Of a DNA stretch of 64,000 nt, positions 1-27,374 are shown piece after piece. Every line of letters starts with the position of its first letter. The stretch's first letter is position 1. The stretch lies in the NCBI RefSeq assembly GCF_054482525.1, contig NZ_JBTHVG010000003.1; one strand, written 5' to 3'. This DNA comes from a plasmid. The translations under genes were made by a program, and so were the position numbers. The notes beneath the pieces were generated by a model. It searched no databases. It saw nothing but the letters and a program-made list of their open reading frames with translations, and was not told where the DNA came from.

Positions 1-664
1 GGTAGGGTCCTTCAACGTTGAGTTTTTTCAGCGAGAACTTGCTAAAAAACCCGATCAGGACATTTTTCCTGTTGCTGGTACGATTTATCCCGTTGAAGAA
101 AAGAGCATCATTAAAGAACTGGAAGAACGCGCACAAAAATATGACTGGGAAGGTGCAAAAAAAAGGGCCGTTGCGGACACCTGGAAAAATCAATGGATGG
201 TCGATCTCCCTCCTGCCCAGGAACACAAAGAATTTTTAATTGACCCTACAGTGAGGGTCACTCAGGACGTAAAAGATAAGCAGGGCCGTGTAATAGCTTC
301 CGCCGGTGAGTTGATTAATCCACTTTCGAGATTTCCTCAAAACCTGACGATGATAATTTTCGATCCACTCAATCCGGGCCAGCTGGTATGGGCTGAGCAG
401 CAGTATCGACAACGTCTGGGTAGTGGAAAAGTAATGCCAATGTTTACCCGTATCCAAAAAGATAATGGATGGGATCACCTAAATGATTTACGTGAAAAAT
501 TTAACGGTAAGGTGTTTAAAGTAAACGAACAGATTATCTCACGCTTTCAGATTAAAAATACACCTGCGCTTATAACTACTGACCAAGATAAATTCCGGAT
601 CACCCTGTTTAGCGAGGCAGAAGTCCGTGGAATCGGAGCCCCAAATCTTTCAGAGGAAAAATAA
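1..664 (+). CDS. traW: Conjugative transfer protein TraW/TrhW-like, 5' partial (gene begins before window)
   Basis: Frame 2 is open from nt 2 to the TAA at 662-664 (ORF-track fragment 197..664); lies immediately upstream of traU as in F-type T4SS operons. Family assignment is by position and size, not by a motif I can name. Confidence 0.55.
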   Translation, partial: VGSFNVEFFQRELAKKPDQDIFPVAGTIYPVEEKSIIKELEERAQKYDWEGAKKRAVADTWKNQWMVDLPPAQEHKEFLIDPTVRVTQDVKDKQGRVIASAGELINPLSRFPQNLTMIIFDPLNPGQLVWAEQQYRQRLGSGKVMPMFTRIQKDNGWDHLNDLREKFNGKVFKVNEQIISRFQIKNTPALITTDQDKFRITLFSEAEVRGIGAPNLSEEK

Positions 665-665
665 T

Positions 666-800
666 ATGAAACTCGGATTTATTATAGGCGCTCTCTTTGC
701 AACATGGCTGACGCTAAATTATCCGGACCAGATGAGAAGTTATTTTACCAAAGCCGTCGACTATATCGAAAGTGTTGCAACATTTATTACATCCAAGTGA
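666..800 (+). CDS. Small hydrophobic ORF (44 aa) between traW and traU
   Basis: ATG at 666 overlaps the traW stop (TAATATG); translation MKLGFIIGALFATWLTLNYPDQ... has a predicted TM segment; its TGA at 798-800 sits 2 nt before the traU ATG. Below the ORF-track size cutoff. Confidence 0.25.
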   Translation: MKLGFIIGALFATWLTLNYPDQMRSYFTKAVDYIESVATFITSK

Positions 801-802
801 GC

Positions 803-1864
803 ATGATGGTGAAAAAATTCAAAAAGTTACTTTTAGAGTTCATTGTAGCAGTTATGCTTTCGCTTTCTATACCTGGTATGGCTATGGCAGCAGATGCTGG
901 AGTCCCTGGGGCTATGTGTCAGTCAGCTGGAGTGTGGCAGGGCTTGATTAAGAATATCTGTTGGAGCTGCATTTTTCCCATGAGGATAATGGGCATAGGG
1001 GCTGCTCCAGAAGGCGCTGCACCTTCACGTCCGGGTTGCTACTGCACAGATCAGAACGGCGTACCGGAAATAGGTTGGCAATTGAGCTTCTTTCAGCCGG
1101 TGAAGATTGTAGAAGTTGTAAAGAGCCCCTGGTGCAGCCCCTTTCTTGAAGGCACGATGCTTCAAAAATCGCAGTTTGATATTGGTAAAAGCAACACTAA
1201 TCAGCCAATGACAGCAACTGAAGCCGGATTTTACGATGTTCATCTTTGGGAGTTCCCAATCATGACAATGCTCAAATTACTGATTATTGGCGAGTGCACT
1301 GCTGAACCCTATATAGATGCCAGCCTGACCTATATAAGCGAAGTGGACCCTATGTGGGAAAGTGATCTGCTTACACTCGTCCTGAATCCCGAGGCAGTAG
1401 TTTTTGCAAACCCAATTGCCTCAATGGTGTGCGCTGCTGACTGTGTAGCAGTAACAGCAGGAAAGGATAATCTCGCTGCATACTTTTGTGCCGGATGCGA
1501 TGGCAACCTTTACCCATTAACCGGCCACATTTACGCAAATGATGACGCTGTAAGGACGAGTTCACTGATTACCCAGCGTCTTCTGACAAAACTACATCGC
1601 CAAGGCATGCTGATGCGAACGATGGGAGCAGACGCAATGTGTGAGAAAACGTGGGAATACTTTACACCACGTTCCCAGTATCGGCTTTCAATGCTTTTCC
1701 CTACTCCTGAGGCGAAGGGACCGGATTGCTGTCATCGTCTTGGTGATTCGGTACACGACTGGTCAACCCTTAAAGGTGGGCGCAAAAAAATAGGCAACGA
1801 TAATTATGTCTATATGTTGTGGCGTTACAATGACTGTTGTGTTCGCTACGTTCCAGGCGTTTGA
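803..1864 (+). CDS. traU: Conjugal transfer protein TraU/TrhU
   Basis: Signal peptide then conserved TraU blocks ICWSCIFP and LNPEAVVFANPIA...KLHRQGMLM; Cys-rich. Start moved to the internal ATG at 803 (ORF-track ORF 704..1864). Confidence 0.9.
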   Translation: MMVKKFKKLLLEFIVAVMLSLSIPGMAMAADAGVPGAMCQSAGVWQGLIKNICWSCIFPMRIMGIGAAPEGAAPSRPGCYCTDQNGVPEIGWQLSFFQPVKIVEVVKSPWCSPFLEGTMLQKSQFDIGKSNTNQPMTATEAGFYDVHLWEFPIMTMLKLLIIGECTAEPYIDASLTYISEVDPMWESDLLTLVLNPEAVVFANPIASMVCAADCVAVTAGKDNLAAYFCAGCDGNLYPLTGHIYANDDAVRTSSLITQRLLTKLHRQGMLMRTMGADAMCEKTWEYFTPRSQYRLSMLFPTPEAKGPDCCHRLGDSVHDWSTLKGGRKKIGNDNYVYMLWRYNDCCVRYVPGV

Positions 1865-1882: not shown

Positions 1883-4800
1883 GTGAAACTTAGAAAAACA
1901 ATCACCTCAGCGATTATTGCATCAATGGTTGCCAATACTATGAGTTGGGCTTTTTATGTCACACTCATAAACATGGTAATGACACCACGTGTTTACGCTG
2001 CTGACGCTATATTTGACCAGCTCGAAAATAATTTTAACCTTGCAAATCCTAACGCAAATCGCAATGCAACCACCAGTGCTCAGGACATTGTGGAGAAATA
2101 CAAGAACGCGGATTCAGGCGAGAATGTCAGTGGGAAGATCACCGAGAAATACGTGGGTAAAGCCGAATCCGCTAATCTTAATCTCGGGAAGTATGGGGCA
2201 GGGAACTCTAATGAAAGTGTCATGAAAAATGCCGCATCCGATGGAAAGTCTATTGGTAGCGCCGTACAACTGCCGAGTATGTCTGGAGGGACAATCAATT
2301 CAAACTACACCAAGGAAGGGGCAAAGCTGCTCTCTCGTGATGCTAATGGCAACATTGGTATAAGCAGTAATCCCAATACTACTCCTGGAACCAAAACAAA
2401 TACGGGAGAGATTTTCAGCTCAGAGCAAAAGCACAGCGATATAAAGTTCAACGCCGCAGATCGTTATGGGGATGAGGATGGCTTTGTTAACGATATAAAG
2501 AATCGGAAAAGCCAGTTATTTGATGCTCAAAGTTATGATGGCGTTGCCTACCGCACCCTCGTAAATGCTAACAAGGACAACCCGGCATCGTCTGTAAAGC
2601 CTAACGATCCCATGTTTACTGCGGGGAGAAATGAGATAACCAATGCTGTTGCTGGTACTGGAAACTGGCTTCAGAACTGTAATGTTGAGACCTCCAAAAA
2701 AACAGTAACCACACACTATCCTGATTACAAAGAGTTCTACTGTAACTCGCCTAAGCAAGATAACTTCAGCAGCTGCACGATAACTCGTGACTTCTCTGTT
2801 CCTGTATACATTTCAGGCGGAAACGGAGACATGTCGATGTGCGGCGATAATTGTGTGCGTATATGGTTTGGTCGCCGTGATGACAACTACTGGAGTGACG
2901 GGGTATTTGATAACGAACTGACATTAAAATTCCATCCGGATGCAAAATTGGCCTCAGCAAAGATTGTTAACGCGGAGTGGGATGACCACATGCGGGTAAC
3001 ACTTGATGGCACGCAGATTTTTGCTCACATAGATGGTGCATATCGAGAAAGTGACTATCCGGCTCCAAAGGGATCTTGGGAGTTAAAAAAATCGTGGAAA
3101 CTCGACAAAGTATACGATGTAACTGAAAAGGTCAGAAAATCAGTTTATGAAGAACCTGATCGTGAAGTGACAATGGCATCCAGAGTCTGGGTTGGTGGGG
3201 GAGGTGAAGGGTACTTTGAGGTTGAGCTGACGTTTGAAAATATGAAGCTCGAAGATAAGCACGTCCAGGAACCAGCTGGTTGTTACGATGCTGTACAAAC
3301 ACCAAATACATTCTGCCGTTTCGATCGGTTTAAAGATATGGATGTTGGCACGAAGCGGCTTCCGGAAAGCGTGCTTTCTATGGCAAAGCCGCTGTATGAA
3401 GGCGATAAAGGCTTTCTTACCTGGAAGACTAACCTTGAAGGCTATTTTTGTGATCCATTGGCTAAAGACAAGATTTGCTCTTATGACGCCAGTGGGAAAA
3501 TTATGAAAGACGCTAATGGAAAGGACCTCTGTTACAACTACGAAGAAATTAAGAGTATGCCTGATGCATGTAGTTCTTATAAAAATGATGCAGCATGTGT
3601 ACTCGATAAACAAACATGTGCAGAGGGTTGGTTCGATGAGGGCACTAACAGCTGCTACATGTATGAACAGAAATACACCTGTGACAGAGGTAAGGATGTA
3701 GTTCGTGAGGTTGAATCTTCTACAAATGCCTGTGTTGGCATGATCCCATGTTCTGGAGGAACATGCGAAACTGGGCCAAAGGAAGAGAACAACGATTTTG
3801 GAAAAGTTGCGGCTTATTCAAACATGGTTCAGTACATGCAGGGCGAAGCCAAATGCGAAGACCCTAACGATGCCAATTCCTGTTCTGTCTTTGAAGGAAA
3901 ACCTGAATGGTGTGGTCGTTCAGTAGGCTTTGTAAATGGCCTGGCAAAGACGGACTGCTGCGAAGCACCGCAGGGAACCGCAGGAGCACTTGAAGGTATC
4001 ATGCTTGCCGGATCTATGATCAGAAACACTAACTGGACCAGAGTTAATGCTCAGCTAATAAAATGGACCGGCGGTGATACAGGTACATGGGCTTCTATGT
4101 CCAATGCGGTCGGTGAGTGGACTGCATCAGCTGGTAAAACAGTAGGGCAAATGTGGAACAATGTCACGAGCTCCTTAACGAGCGTATATGAAAACGTCGC
4201 TGGTAATCTAAGCAGGGCAGTTGGGTCTTCCGCAACTTCTGGAGGGGCAGGAGGTGCTGGCCAGTTGGCACAGGAAACAATGTCCAGCTTCGGTATAGGT
4301 CAGCTTAAGCAGATGGCAATGAAGAAAGCCTACGAATTGCTACCAGATACAGTTCGAGACTTTGTCTTTAAGAACGTTGCTACTACCGGAGGAGAGGTTG
4401 TCTTCTCGGCTGCGGTTCAAAACTTTATGCTTGCATTAAACGTGATCGGTTGGATTTATACAGCCTATCAGGTCACTAAAATGCTTTTAGAAATGTTGGT
4501 AGCATGCGACCAGAAAGAGATGGAAGCTTCTATTCATAAGAATCAAAAATCCTGTTTTACATTAGATACGGAACGATGCGTCAAATATCTGAATGTTGGT
4601 TTCACAAAGAAATGCGTTAAAAAAGCAACAGACATGTGCTGTTATAATTCCATGTTGTCACGCGTTATTATGCAACAAGCTTATCCGCAATTAGGAATAG
4701 ACCCTGTCGCCTCTAATTGCGTGGGGCTATCAATAAAGCAAATACAGCAACTGGATTTCGATAAAATTGATCTGACGGAGTGGATTAATGATGCAGTTCA

Positions 4801-5071
4801 GGTAGGAGAAGTTCCTGATCAATATTCAAAATTCTCCGAAGAATCAATTGTGGAAAACTTACCATTCCAGAATGAGAACTATCAACTTCCATCAGAACGT
4901 ACCAAGGAAGCAATGGGCGGTGAAGAAAATATGATAAAGGCCAGACAAGAAAATGCTCAGGCTATAAAAGAGGAAAATGTAGATTGTAGCTATTTACCTC
5001 GACCGGCCATATGTGAGGTAGGTTCAACTACGCTGGATCCGGTTACGGGCAAGCAGTTGCCGAAATATTGA
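1883..5071 (+). CDS. traN: Mating-pair stabilisation protein TraN/TrhN-like (1062 aa, Cys-rich)
   Basis: GTG start with AAGGAG RBS; N-terminal signal peptide; many conserved Cys pairs, C-terminal CC motif (KKATDMCCYNSMLSRV); directly follows traU; size matches the long TrhN-type proteins of IncHI/SXT-like elements. Confidence 0.8.
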   Translation: MKLRKTITSAIIASMVANTMSWAFYVTLINMVMTPRVYAADAIFDQLENNFNLANPNANRNATTSAQDIVEKYKNADSGENVSGKITEKYVGKAESANLNLGKYGAGNSNESVMKNAASDGKSIGSAVQLPSMSGGTINSNYTKEGAKLLSRDANGNIGISSNPNTTPGTKTNTGEIFSSEQKHSDIKFNAADRYGDEDGFVNDIKNRKSQLFDAQSYDGVAYRTLVNANKDNPASSVKPNDPMFTAGRNEITNAVAGTGNWLQNCNVETSKKTVTTHYPDYKEFYCNSPKQDNFSSCTITRDFSVPVYISGGNGDMSMCGDNCVRIWFGRRDDNYWSDGVFDNELTLKFHPDAKLASAKIVNAEWDDHMRVTLDGTQIFAHIDGAYRESDYPAPKGSWELKKSWKLDKVYDVTEKVRKSVYEEPDREVTMASRVWVGGGGEGYFEVELTFENMKLEDKHVQEPAGCYDAVQTPNTFCRFDRFKDMDVGTKRLPESVLSMAKPLYEGDKGFLTWKTNLEGYFCDPLAKDKICSYDASGKIMKDANGKDLCYNYEEIKSMPDACSSYKNDAACVLDKQTCAEGWFDEGTNSCYMYEQKYTCDRGKDVVREVESSTNACVGMIPCSGGTCETGPKEENNDFGKVAAYSNMVQYMQGEAKCEDPNDANSCSVFEGKPEWCGRSVGFVNGLAKTDCCEAPQGTAGALEGIMLAGSMIRNTNWTRVNAQLIKWTGGDTGTWASMSNAVGEWTASAGKTVGQMWNNVTSSLTSVYENVAGNLSRAVGSSATSGGAGGAGQLAQETMSSFGIGQLKQMAMKKAYELLPDTVRDFVFKNVATTGGEVVFSAAVQNFMLALNVIGWIYTAYQVTKMLLEMLVACDQKEMEASIHKNQKSCFTLDTERCVKYLNVGFTKKCVKKATDMCCYNSMLSRVIMQQAYPQLGIDPVASNCVGLSIKQIQQLDFDKIDLTEWINDAVQVGEVPDQYSKFSEESIVENLPFQNENYQLPSERTKEAMGGEENMIKARQENAQAIKEENVDCSYLPRPAICEVGSTTLDPVTGKQLPKY

Positions 5072-9203: not shown

Positions 9204-9260
9204 TCCTGTTAAGGGGGAACCCTAACGGGGCTTCTCTTTGAACAAATCGAGGAGCGGAAA

Positions 9261-9638
9261 ATGTCATATCTTGAATATATCAATGAAGTAAAAGTGTCCG
9301 GGATAGTTATCAGTGCTGTGGAGAAAAAAATGACTGACCAGAGTATAGGTTTGTTAATAAAGCTCAAAAATAGGATGAAGACAGAAGTTGATGGTGAAAT
9401 CACTGAGAGAGAATTTTCAGTTCAAATCAAGGTGTCGCCTGAAATGTATTCAACCTGTTTCACTGGTATAAATCAGGGTGATGAGTTGATGGTCTCCGGT
9501 TATATTGTTGTCGATACTATTATGATTGAAGGGAGAGAACATCCTCTTGACTACATGAGAGTGGTAGCAACAAGTAAGTTGGCTCACATACCTAAACCTC
9601 TAAAAGGTTTTGGACAAAGTAGCTTTAATCAGATCTGA
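9261..9638 (+). CDS. Hypothetical protein, possible OB-fold ssDNA-binding-like
   Basis: 125 aa with GAGGAG RBS; beta-rich pattern loosely resembling SSB/PriB. Weak assignment. Confidence 0.4.
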   Translation: MSYLEYINEVKVSGIVISAVEKKMTDQSIGLLIKLKNRMKTEVDGEITEREFSVQIKVSPEMYSTCFTGINQGDELMVSGYIVVDTIMIEGREHPLDYMRVVATSKLAHIPKPLKGFGQSSFNQI

Positions 9639-26468: not shown

Positions 26469-27374
26469 ATGCAATGGATTTCCACAGCCAGCCAGAAAAT
26501 CGATGAGCGTCTCTATCGTGTCTGCGTCTGGGTAAAAAAATATCACGCTGATGCGATTAACCGCGTTGTGCTTACCGTTGATCTAAGTAAAGCCCGACAT
26601 GACCCTGACGAGGACCAGGTAAGAGCAGAGCTGCTGTGCGGCCATTATTTTTTGCTTCGTAAGGAAAACGCTTCGAACTCTGCGCCTGACGATCAAAAGT
26701 TTGCTTTCCTGCCTGACGGGCGCAATCTGTGTTGGCAGACCGCAACCCCGGTGCTTCAGCATCTCCTGCTCAATAAAAACGTTCCTGAGTCGCTGAGGTT
26801 GCTTACGGACTACATACATATGCGTCTGGCCAGGCTGACAATGGTACCAATGTCCGGAACCATCATGAACGAGGCTCTGCTGGACAGCATCAGCTGGGTT
26901 AAGGTGGATTTGACCTACTTCTGGCAGTACGAACAGCTCAGCTCTCATCTGGGACCCATCCAGATAACCCACAAGGCACTAGTACGCTTCGGGCATCTGG
27001 CAAAGAATGATGAAAACTCCAGTGCCATAAGAATCCTGCGTCAGCGTCTGTCTTCAGAATTCTTACAAGAATTTCAGATGGCTGAGGATGAGCTAAAGCG
27101 CAAACAGTCGTTGATGGGCACCATGGACGTGAAAATGCTGTTTCATGCTCATTACCCCAGCCAGAAGATGCTGGTGGCTCGATATAAAAATGGTTGGGTA
27201 ATGGTGGATTGTTTTCTGTTTCATCATACCAAACCTAAGAAAAAAGCAAAAAACAAAACTACTGTGGCTAAGCCTCAACTTAAAGAGACTAAAAGAGAAG
27301 GGAGTGAAAATGGAACTGGGCATTATGGTGTGCATCGTGTTGTTACTCTCCGTGGCGGCGGCGTGGATCAGTAA
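26469..27374 (+). CDS. Hypothetical protein
   Basis: 301-aa ORF with a basic, lysine-rich C-terminal tail. Confidence 0.4.
   Translation: MQWISTASQKIDERLYRVCVWVKKYHADAINRVVLTVDLSKARHDPDEDQVRAELLCGHYFLLRKENASNSAPDDQKFAFLPDGRNLCWQTATPVLQHLLLNKNVPESLRLLTDYIHMRLARLTMVPMSGTIMNEALLDSISWVKVDLTYFWQYEQLSSHLGPIQITHKALVRFGHLAKNDENSSAIRILRQRLSSEFLQEFQMAEDELKRKQSLMGTMDVKMLFHAHYPSQKMLVARYKNGWVMVDCFLFHHTKPKKKAKNKTTVAKPQLKETKREGSENGTGHYGVHRVVTLRGGGVDQ

Follow-up and report, generated by a model that had tools for sequence, protein, structure and literature searches.

A conserved 44-codon gene, seldom annotated, between trhW and trhU of the IncHI transfer operon

The present study deals with a window of 64,000 nucleotides of plasmid DNA (NCBI RefSeq assembly GCF_054482525.1, contig NZ_JBTHVG010000003.1), the whole stretch that was analysed, and in particular with a small open reading frame (ORF) located near its beginning, between the conjugative transfer genes trhW and trhU. 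The initial annotation had noted a 44-amino acid (aa) ORF at 666-800 between genes of the traW and traU types, and such a frame is indeed present on the + strand, running from the ATG at 666 to a TGA ending at 800 and encoding the peptide MKLGFIIGALFATWLTLNYPDQMRSYFTKAVDYIESVATFITSK. The upstream gene, trhW, is annotated as "TrbC family F-type conjugative pilus assembly protein" (503 aa), and the downstream product, TrhU (351 aa), matches the Pfam family TraU (PF06834) with E=3.6e-82 (Table 1). The comparative data described below suggest that 666-800 is almost certainly a genuine protein-coding gene of the IncHI transfer (AN/Tra2) operon.

We compared eight lineages, namely IncHI2, IncHI1 (R27 type), the pN330-1 type, two Photorhabdus megaplasmid-like contigs and three lineages from metagenome or read assemblies. 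The gene order is identical in all of these loci: rsp, trhF (S26 peptidase), trhW, the small ORF, trhU and trhN. In a single sequence one open frame across the gap is unremarkable, as 44 stop-free codons arise by chance with P about 0.11 and some open frame is found in 15% of segment shuffles; the conservation across lineages is far beyond chance. The ORF keeps a length of 43-44 codons without any insertion or deletion (indel) in 8/8 lineages at 50-91% nucleotide identity, and at least seven of these lineages have stops in the five other frames. Variable sites at codon positions 1, 2 and 3 number 26, 23 and 41 of 43 (Fisher p=1.9e-6), and the uncorrected ratio of nonsynonymous to synonymous differences (pN/pS) lies between 0.20 and 0.61 in all 28 pairs, with Jukes-Cantor dN/dS values of 0.15-0.21 for the three closest ones. 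In comparisons involving IncHI2 the corresponding ratios of the two alternative sense frames are 1.3-3.1; for IncHI1 versus pN330 they are 0.58 and 1.75. The conservation of the frame in relatives, which had been put forward as a check, is thus established: the frame stays open, free of indels and subject to purifying selection, in each of the eight lineages of the IncHI1/IncHI2 clade.

In the comparisons of IncHI2 with IncHI1 and pN330 we also observed a pS of 0.55-0.60 within the ORF (666-794), below the 0.82-0.93 of trhW (2-661) and trhU (809-1861). This lowering is not seen in most other lineage pairs, and it could be due to recombination, nucleotide-level constraint or small-sample noise.

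The literature on R27 implicitly treats this stretch as something other than a gene, and a chance ORF lying in a non-coding spacer, in an RNA processing region or in a regulatory RNA would agree with the proportion of shuffles that leave a frame open across the gap (about 15%), with the usual lack of an annotation by PGAP, and with the work of Gibert et al. 2020 (PMC7366339), who term the stretch intergenic and found several trhU-trhN 5' ends by 5' rapid amplification of cDNA ends. The strong three-base periodicity of the substitutions and the retention of the frame in eight lineages speak against it, and so do the searches for non-coding features. The Rfam scan of the stretch gave no family at E below 2, the single-sequence RNA fold is weaker than that of shuffles (z=+1.47), the scan of the + strand found neither promoter nor terminator, and the fold of the eight-lineage alignment yields a consensus structure of -4 kcal/mol with zero covariation. 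On the minus strand two promoter-like hits were found versus 1.6 expected, that is, background, and they are located in variable columns. On these comparative grounds a non-genic origin is already contradicted and appears extremely improbable. An antisense promoter of the kind expected for a type I toxin was likewise considered and discarded, the minus-strand hexamers not being conserved and no Rfam antisense family being matched.

The analysis of both junctions demonstrates a conserved layout of translation signals. The start of the ORF had been claimed to overlap the stop of trhW, which is incorrect: the sequence reads TAA-T-ATG, with a 1-nt spacer, and in all lineages the trhW stop precedes the ATG by 1-2 nt. 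The Shine-Dalgarno (SD) sequence of the ORF takes the forms AGAGGAG, AAAGGAG or GGGAGGGG across the lineages, always in the last trhW codons, and its pairing with the 3' end of the 16S rRNA amounts to -6.0 kcal/mol in the window and to -7.4 to -11.7 kcal/mol elsewhere. At the other end, the ORF stop had been placed 2 nt before the traU ATG. This holds for ATG 803, but that codon is specific to IncHI2, and the start common to 8/8 lineages, also chosen by PGAP, is GTG 809, which lies 8 nt past the ORF stop. Within IncHI2 itself the trhU start is ambiguous, as ATG 803, ATG 806 and GTG 809 are all available, GTG 809 alone being kept in the eight lineages. The SD-like element of trhU pairs weakly (-2.9 to -5.3 kcal/mol); its AG-N-GAG is separated from the invariant GTG by 8 nt, or by 11 nt in one lineage, and the TrhU signal peptide (VKKFKKLLLEFIVAVMLSLSIPGMAMA/AD...) follows.

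With regard to the start of the ORF itself, a 57-aa form beginning at GTG 627 is called by some gene finders. Since this extension runs into trhW and none of the homologs has it, all of them, stand-alone ones included, beginning at M-K/R-L-G-F, ATG 666 is taken as the start. A peptide 'variant' of 57% identity in pYSP8-1 (L004, NZ_CP037911.1) was rejected as an assembly artefact and not a natural frameshift. The RefSeq assembly of that plasmid carries single-base indels throughout trhW, the ORF and trhU, and 3 kb of it contain hardly any annotated coding sequence.

A small ORF with strong initiation signals, ending on the weak SD of a gene that starts with GTG, corresponds to the classic arrangement for termination-reinitiation. 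Ribosomes would load on the ORF by means of its own strong SD, or would re-initiate there after the trhW stop located 1-2 nt upstream, and would then terminate at a stop inside the weak trhU SD, 8 nt before the GTG; from this position of the stop it follows that the synthesis of TrhU would be coupled to translation of the ORF. A translational coupling of trhW, the ORF and trhU fits the conserved junctions and agrees with data on R27, in which trhW-trhU are co-transcribed and the stretch has no promoter activity (Gibert et al. 2020, PMC7366339). We also observed a sequence-invariant hairpin in which 796-800 pairs with 827-831 and 808-810 with 817-819 (alignment columns 172-176/203-207 and 184-186/193-195). 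As a suggestion, this hairpin could sequester the SD-like element and the GTG of trhU, to be opened by ribosomes terminating on the ORF.

The same study of R27 describes the trhW-trhU stretch as an intergenic region of 249 bp (PMC7366339). This figure fits an original annotation of R27 trhU from Met36, since adding 35 codons to the gap of 144 nt yields 249 nt, and a start at Met36 would remove the Sec signal peptide of TrhU (R27, L012 9128-9233 complement).

The ORF had been called unannotated, and this is true of most RefSeq/PGAP records, but the peptide has been deposited as 'hypothetical protein' (WP_000765857.1, AGQ75945.1 and others). It is annotated in 0/20 sampled E. coli RefSeq records and is also unannotated in the RefSeq entries of R27 and R478; in these two and in all sampled E. 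coli RefSeq records PGAP leaves a 144-nt gap at its site. Of 60 sampled plasmid records, about 54 lack an annotation of it and about 6 give it as "hypothetical protein", examples of annotated copies being WP_000765857.1 (IncHI2) and WP_022652169.1 (pN330-1). At least 1,000 deposited contigs carry the exact 44-aa peptide (AGQ75945.1 and others), mostly under the same name. The explanation that it had been missed by size cutoffs is only roughly right: gene callers report it in many deposits, but PGAP usually drops the ORF. Furthermore, peptides of 43-44 aa are labelled 'TrhU' in UniRef clusters (e.g. RepID A0A142CQ64_ECOLX, A0A2L0W1R2_CITFR), which looks like an error of neighbour-name transfer that could propagate. 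An identity of the peptide with TraU/TrhU was rejected, as no Pfam family is matched by the 44 aa at E up to 1.

The peptide shows two different halves. AlphaFold2, run on a 33-member family alignment, predicts a helix at residues 3-18, a break at Tyr19-Pro20 and a second helix at 20-43, with a mean pLDDT of 86.5. The Kyte-Doolittle mean is 2.0 over residues 3-17 and 1.2-1.4 in a 19-residue window; summing the Hessa dG over 15 residues gives -1.0, and over 19 residues a positive value. The hydrophobic moment reaches 0.49 at residues 21-38. The description of the ORF as hydrophobic is thus correct for residues 3-17 only, the C-terminal half being amphipathic, and its proposed nature as a small membrane protein finds support at the level of prediction, in a hydrophobic helix of 15-17 residues with a conserved GxxxG, a motif typical of the packing between transmembrane helices. 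The N-terminal Lys/Arg, together with the acidic tails of the chromosomal homologs (-7/+2), would favour an N-in/C-out topology under the positive-inside rule. Neither a sequence profile search of the PDB nor a Foldseek search of the AlphaFold2 model against the PDB gave a match, and scans of the peptide and 33 family members against Pfam, NCBIfam and PHROGs gave no credible family. The sole repeated library match is phrog_36682, function not known, which covers the hydrophobic segment only (best E 3e-4).

Homologs of the peptide form a wider family of small proteins. A three-sequence profile retrieved 18 proteins among 1.84 billion representatives, and a 14-sequence profile retrieved 36 clusters among 5.8 billion proteins, all from Enterobacterales and all "hypothetical", with E down to 1e-20. 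In the 33-member alignment the family motif is M-[KR]-LGF-xx-G-xxx-ATWLTL-x-YP-xx-M-xxx-F, in which six residues never vary (M1, F5, G8, L15, Y19, P20) and four more reach a conservation of at least 90% (G4, W14, L17, F27). Two subtypes can be distinguished. The plasmid copies have 43-44 aa, lack a hydrophilic tail and are always found between trhW and trhU, whereas the chromosomal ones have 50-70 aa, carry an acidic hydrophilic tail and are stand-alone monocistronic genes. The latter occur in Serratia, Klebsiella, Kluyvera, Dryocola, Enterobacter and Providencia, and chromosomal 'hypothetical proteins' of Photorhabdus are also counted in the family. They are located in variable islets, in one Klebsiella between gstB and dacC for instance, and their neighbours include insertion sequence (IS) elements, fimbrial operons, PerC, a GnsAB toxin, a cspA-type thermoregulator/leader with a cold-shock gene, a tRNA gene and isrN. 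The search of 50,697 phage genomes found no homolog.

Two of these chromosomal loci deserve a brief description. In one of them, a match to Rfam STnc100 (RF02076), a prophage-associated small RNA (sRNA), scores 78 bits at L019:3817-3992 (+), the gathering score being 47. The match shares the strand of the homolog (L019:4001-4171), lies 8 nt upstream of it and may represent the 5' leader of that gene; the other chromosomal copies remain below the gathering score. In Serratia rhizosphaerae a tRNA gene lies 54 nt downstream of the homolog (L026:6234-6305; 9204-9346), which is found amid IS fragments, duplicated invasin-like genes and a match to the sRNA isrN, an island-like context.

The family bears on the question of whether the peptide itself matters. 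Translation of the ORF might just hand ribosomes from trhW to the weak trhU GTG, the peptide being functionless; the pairing of a trhU with a GTG and a weak SD overlapping the ORF stop with an ORF having a strong SD would suit such a relay, as would the sister IncHI clade, in which trhU is coupled directly to trhW by an ATGA overlap. However, a relay would tolerate changes in length, and there are 0 indels in the eight lineages; the purifying selection acts at the amino acid level (pN/pS 0.2-0.6), with six invariant and four near-invariant residues in the 33 members; and the same N-terminal 30 residues are conserved in chromosomal genes with nothing to relay to. A function limited to the relay of ribosomes is thus very unlikely, and the retention of the N-terminal motif in stand-alone chromosomal homologs supports a function at the level of the peptide.

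On plasmids the distribution is narrow. A tblastn search over 72,556 plasmids gave matches to the peptide in about 1,400 records, none of them outside the IncHI1/HI2 clade, and in the TrhU tree the ORF-bearing plasmids are monophyletic (TrhU 87-97% identical), the sister clade and the outgroups being without the ORF. The most parsimonious explanation is that the ancestor of the clade (IncHI1/IncHI2/Photorhabdus-plasmid) gained about 140 nt once. An origin as a remnant of a neighbouring gene was rejected, as blastp against TrhW, the TrhW and TrhU of the sister clade, and the EAL-domain protein and TraW of IncC returned noise only; the 50-aa difference in TrhW length between the two IncHI clades is N-terminal and not at the junction. 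The slot between traW and traU apparently takes up lineage-specific cargo repeatedly. The EAL-domain gene of IncC plasmids (c-di-GMP phosphodiesterase-type) overlaps both of its neighbours (L010:1351-2022, L011:1279-1950; L009:1309-1974), and in pRWS292.s1, a K. pneumoniae plasmid of the sister clade, a TnpB-family (IS200/IS605-type) element is inserted between trhW and trhU (L007:269-1477), parting genes which normally overlap by ATGA.

Taking these data together, we moderately favour the view that the ORF is a real gene, translationally linked to trhW and trhU, whose product is probably a membrane-anchored helix-break-helix peptide and most likely an auxiliary, lineage-specific factor of the TrhW/TrhU module. 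In this proposal the N-terminal helix with its GxxxG would anchor the peptide in the inner membrane, probably N-in/C-out, and the amphipathic C-terminal helix would lie at the periplasmic face. Working near the periplasmic TrhW and TrhU, the peptide would serve mating-pair formation or pilus assembly as an auxiliary, non-universal membrane factor, and the ancestor of the clade would have gained it once from a family of small proteins also present in chromosomal islands. The part of the proposal that assigns the peptide a role in the type IV secretion system (T4SS) is the more tentative one, and we would put its chances slightly short of even. A bolder version, in which an undescribed family of small GxxxG membrane peptides travels on enterobacterial mobile elements and the IncHI1/IncHI2 lineage has captured a copy into its mating-pair-formation operon, there to become a transmembrane adaptor that tethers or regulates the periplasmic TrhW/TrhU pilus-assembly module and gates TrhU synthesis by coupling, seems unlikely.

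Several observations weigh against the role proposed for the peptide. The Klebsiella IncHI1B/pNDM-MAR-type plasmids, the sister clade with 79% TrhU identity, are without the ORF, their trhW and trhU overlapping by ATGA; in Rts1 the trhW- and trhU-type genes abut with no ORF between them, and the traW-traU slot of IncC holds an unrelated EAL-domain gene of 223 aa. The ORF is thus dispensable for the F-type machinery as such. No T4SS genes are found within 4-6 kb of the chromosomal-island homologs, and therefore the activity of the family need not concern conjugation. The ORF evolves far faster than TrhU (44-88% versus 87-97% aa identity). The hydrophobic core has just 15-17 residues and, together with the weak scores in the 19-residue windows, this makes a true membrane span plausible but not certain. 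The trhU-proximal hairpin has no covariation support in the eight-lineage alignment, because its bases are invariant. Finally, the searchable literature holds no paper on the ORF or its accession, nor any data on expression, localisation or phenotype. The initial designation as a T4SS component holds at most as a possible role: the ORF is missing from the sister IncHI clade and from other systems of the F-type mating-pair formation class (MPF-F), and stand-alone chromosomal homologs exist without a T4SS. In the same way, an essential or core MPF-F component was considered and rejected on the basis of the junctions of the Klebsiella pNDM-MAR-type IncHI plasmids, IncC and Rts1, and of the confinement of the tblastn matches to the IncHI1/HI2 clade.

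The same distribution could also be read as that of a cargo gene, real and functional but unrelated to the pilus or the T4SS and merely expressed from the transfer operon, in the manner of prophage morons; possible activities would be the modulation of host envelope proteins, exclusion or defence, or a mild membrane toxicity. The 50-70 aa homologs stand alone in variable islets with neighbours of the prophage-remnant or island type, the traW-traU slot accepts unrelated genes elsewhere (the IncC EAL-domain gene, the Klebsiella TnpB), and the sister IncHI clade manages without the ORF. Against this, the position and the tight junctions are kept across a clade whose synonymous sites are near saturation, the plasmid copies constitute a distinct subtype of 43-44 aa which has lost the hydrophilic tail and is confined to this slot, and the phage genomes lack any homolog, the one weak PHROG match being limited to the hydrophobic segment. 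We consider the cargo explanation rather doubtful, and retain that of an auxiliary factor of the TrhW/TrhU module.

The first 5 kb of the window are 95-100% identical to more than 1,100 plasmids of IncHI2/IncHI2A, MOBH, MPF-F, R478 type, and the whole window is collinear with the plasmid p14EC029b (99.98% identical) apart from one copy of ISApl1, which p14EC029b carries and which is missing from the window at about 27276-27287. The usual IncHI2 backbone is present (trhI, hha, ter operons), and also a Tus-like gene.

Table 1. Position of the small gene, its translation signals, the predicted parts of its product and the neighbouring transfer genes in the window.
Feature	Position	Strand	Description	Basis
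trhW, 3' part	1-664	+	TrbC/TraW-type fused pilus assembly gene (503 aa); stop TAA 662-664	Annotation of identical plasmids, sequence
SD of the small ORF	652-657	+	AGAGGA, in the last trhW codons, 8 nt before the ATG	AGG core invariant in 8 lineages
Small ORF	666-800	+	44 codons + TGA; very probably a conserved protein-coding gene (RefSeq WP_000765857.1, 'hypothetical protein')	
Hydrophobic helix	672-719	+	LGFIIGALFATWLTLN, codons 3-18; conserved G4-xxx-G8 and W14; predicted membrane anchor	
Tyr-Pro	720-725	+	Codons 19-20, invariant; break between the two helices	Family alignment, AlphaFold2
Amphipathic helix	726-794	+	Codons 21-43; faster-evolving half	Hydrophobic moment, AlphaFold2, alignment
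SD-like element of trhU	796-801	+	AGTGAG, weak; holds the ORF stop TGA (798-800)	AG-N-GAG invariant in 8 lineages
trhU	809-1864	+	TraU family; conserved start GTG 809; ATG 803 and 806 are IncHI2-specific in-frame codons	
trhN	1883-5071	+	TraN family; next operon gene after trhU	

Plasmids of the IncHI1 and IncHI2 types are major carriers of multidrug resistance in Salmonella Typhi and of mcr-1 in E. coli, and their transfer operons are treated as fully inventoried. The peptide was already in the databases as a hypothetical protein; what the analysis contributes in practice is a corrected picture of the stretch and of the trhU start. The finding is incremental: F-type transfer operons commonly contain small membrane proteins restricted to one lineage, so that no conceptual surprise is involved. 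The 249-bp "intergenic region" of R27 (PMC7366339) is not intergenic, as it holds a gene of 43-44 codons and the signal-peptide-encoding 5' end of trhU. The transcript-end and polarity data of the AN operon need rereading with the ORF in mind, and insertions or deletions made in the trhW-trhU stretch would not be neutral. The gene adds one more candidate to the accessory transfer factors, and a small uncharacterised protein family becomes defined for annotation pipelines, with the "TrhU" mislabel of UniRef exposed. If the adaptor version were true, the peptide would be an overlooked lineage-specific determinant of H-pilus assembly or thermosensitive transfer, sitting in the principal plasmid families responsible for the spread of mcr-1 and of multidrug resistance in typhoid.

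The arrangement can be compared with several known systems. With translationally coupled pairs, such as the ATGA overlap of trhW and trhU in Klebsiella pNDM-MAR-type IncHI plasmids, it shares the close spacing (1-2 nt and 8 nt), the weak SD and the non-ATG start of the downstream gene, trhU. It differs from that direct pair in the 44-codon gene, with its own strong SD, interposed between the two. With type I toxins (Hok, Ldr, TisB-like) it has in common a size below 60 aa, an N-terminal hydrophobic helix and a location on a mobile element, and one chromosomal homolog is likewise found next to a prophage-type sRNA, STnc100. Unlike those toxins, it has no conserved antisense promoter or RNA and no Rfam match of the Sok/Hok type, it resides in a long operon with a strong SD, and its C-terminal half is amphipathic or acidic in place of a basic cluster; STnc100, unlike the antisense RNAs of type I systems, is on the same strand as the homolog and upstream of it.

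Small auxiliary inner-membrane proteins are known in F-type (MPF-F) operons, such as TrbE, TrbD, TrbJ and TraQ of F. A further parallel is found in Rts1, whose Orf180, a protein of 45 aa, is essential for mating-pair formation (PMC10838148). The window ORF differs from Orf180 in its place in the operon, as it lies between traW and traU, and a kinship to Orf180 or to F TrbE was rejected (hhalign probability 0.15%, E=0.4, 9 aligned columns). The likeness to these proteins is one of type: tiny, with one N-terminal hydrophobic helix, inside an MPF-F/MOBH Mpf operon, lineage-restricted and often skipped by annotation. In terms of descent, the window ORF is the IncHI2 member of the Enterobacterales small-protein family (WP_000765857.1, WP_022652169.1), with which it shares the same N-terminal motif.

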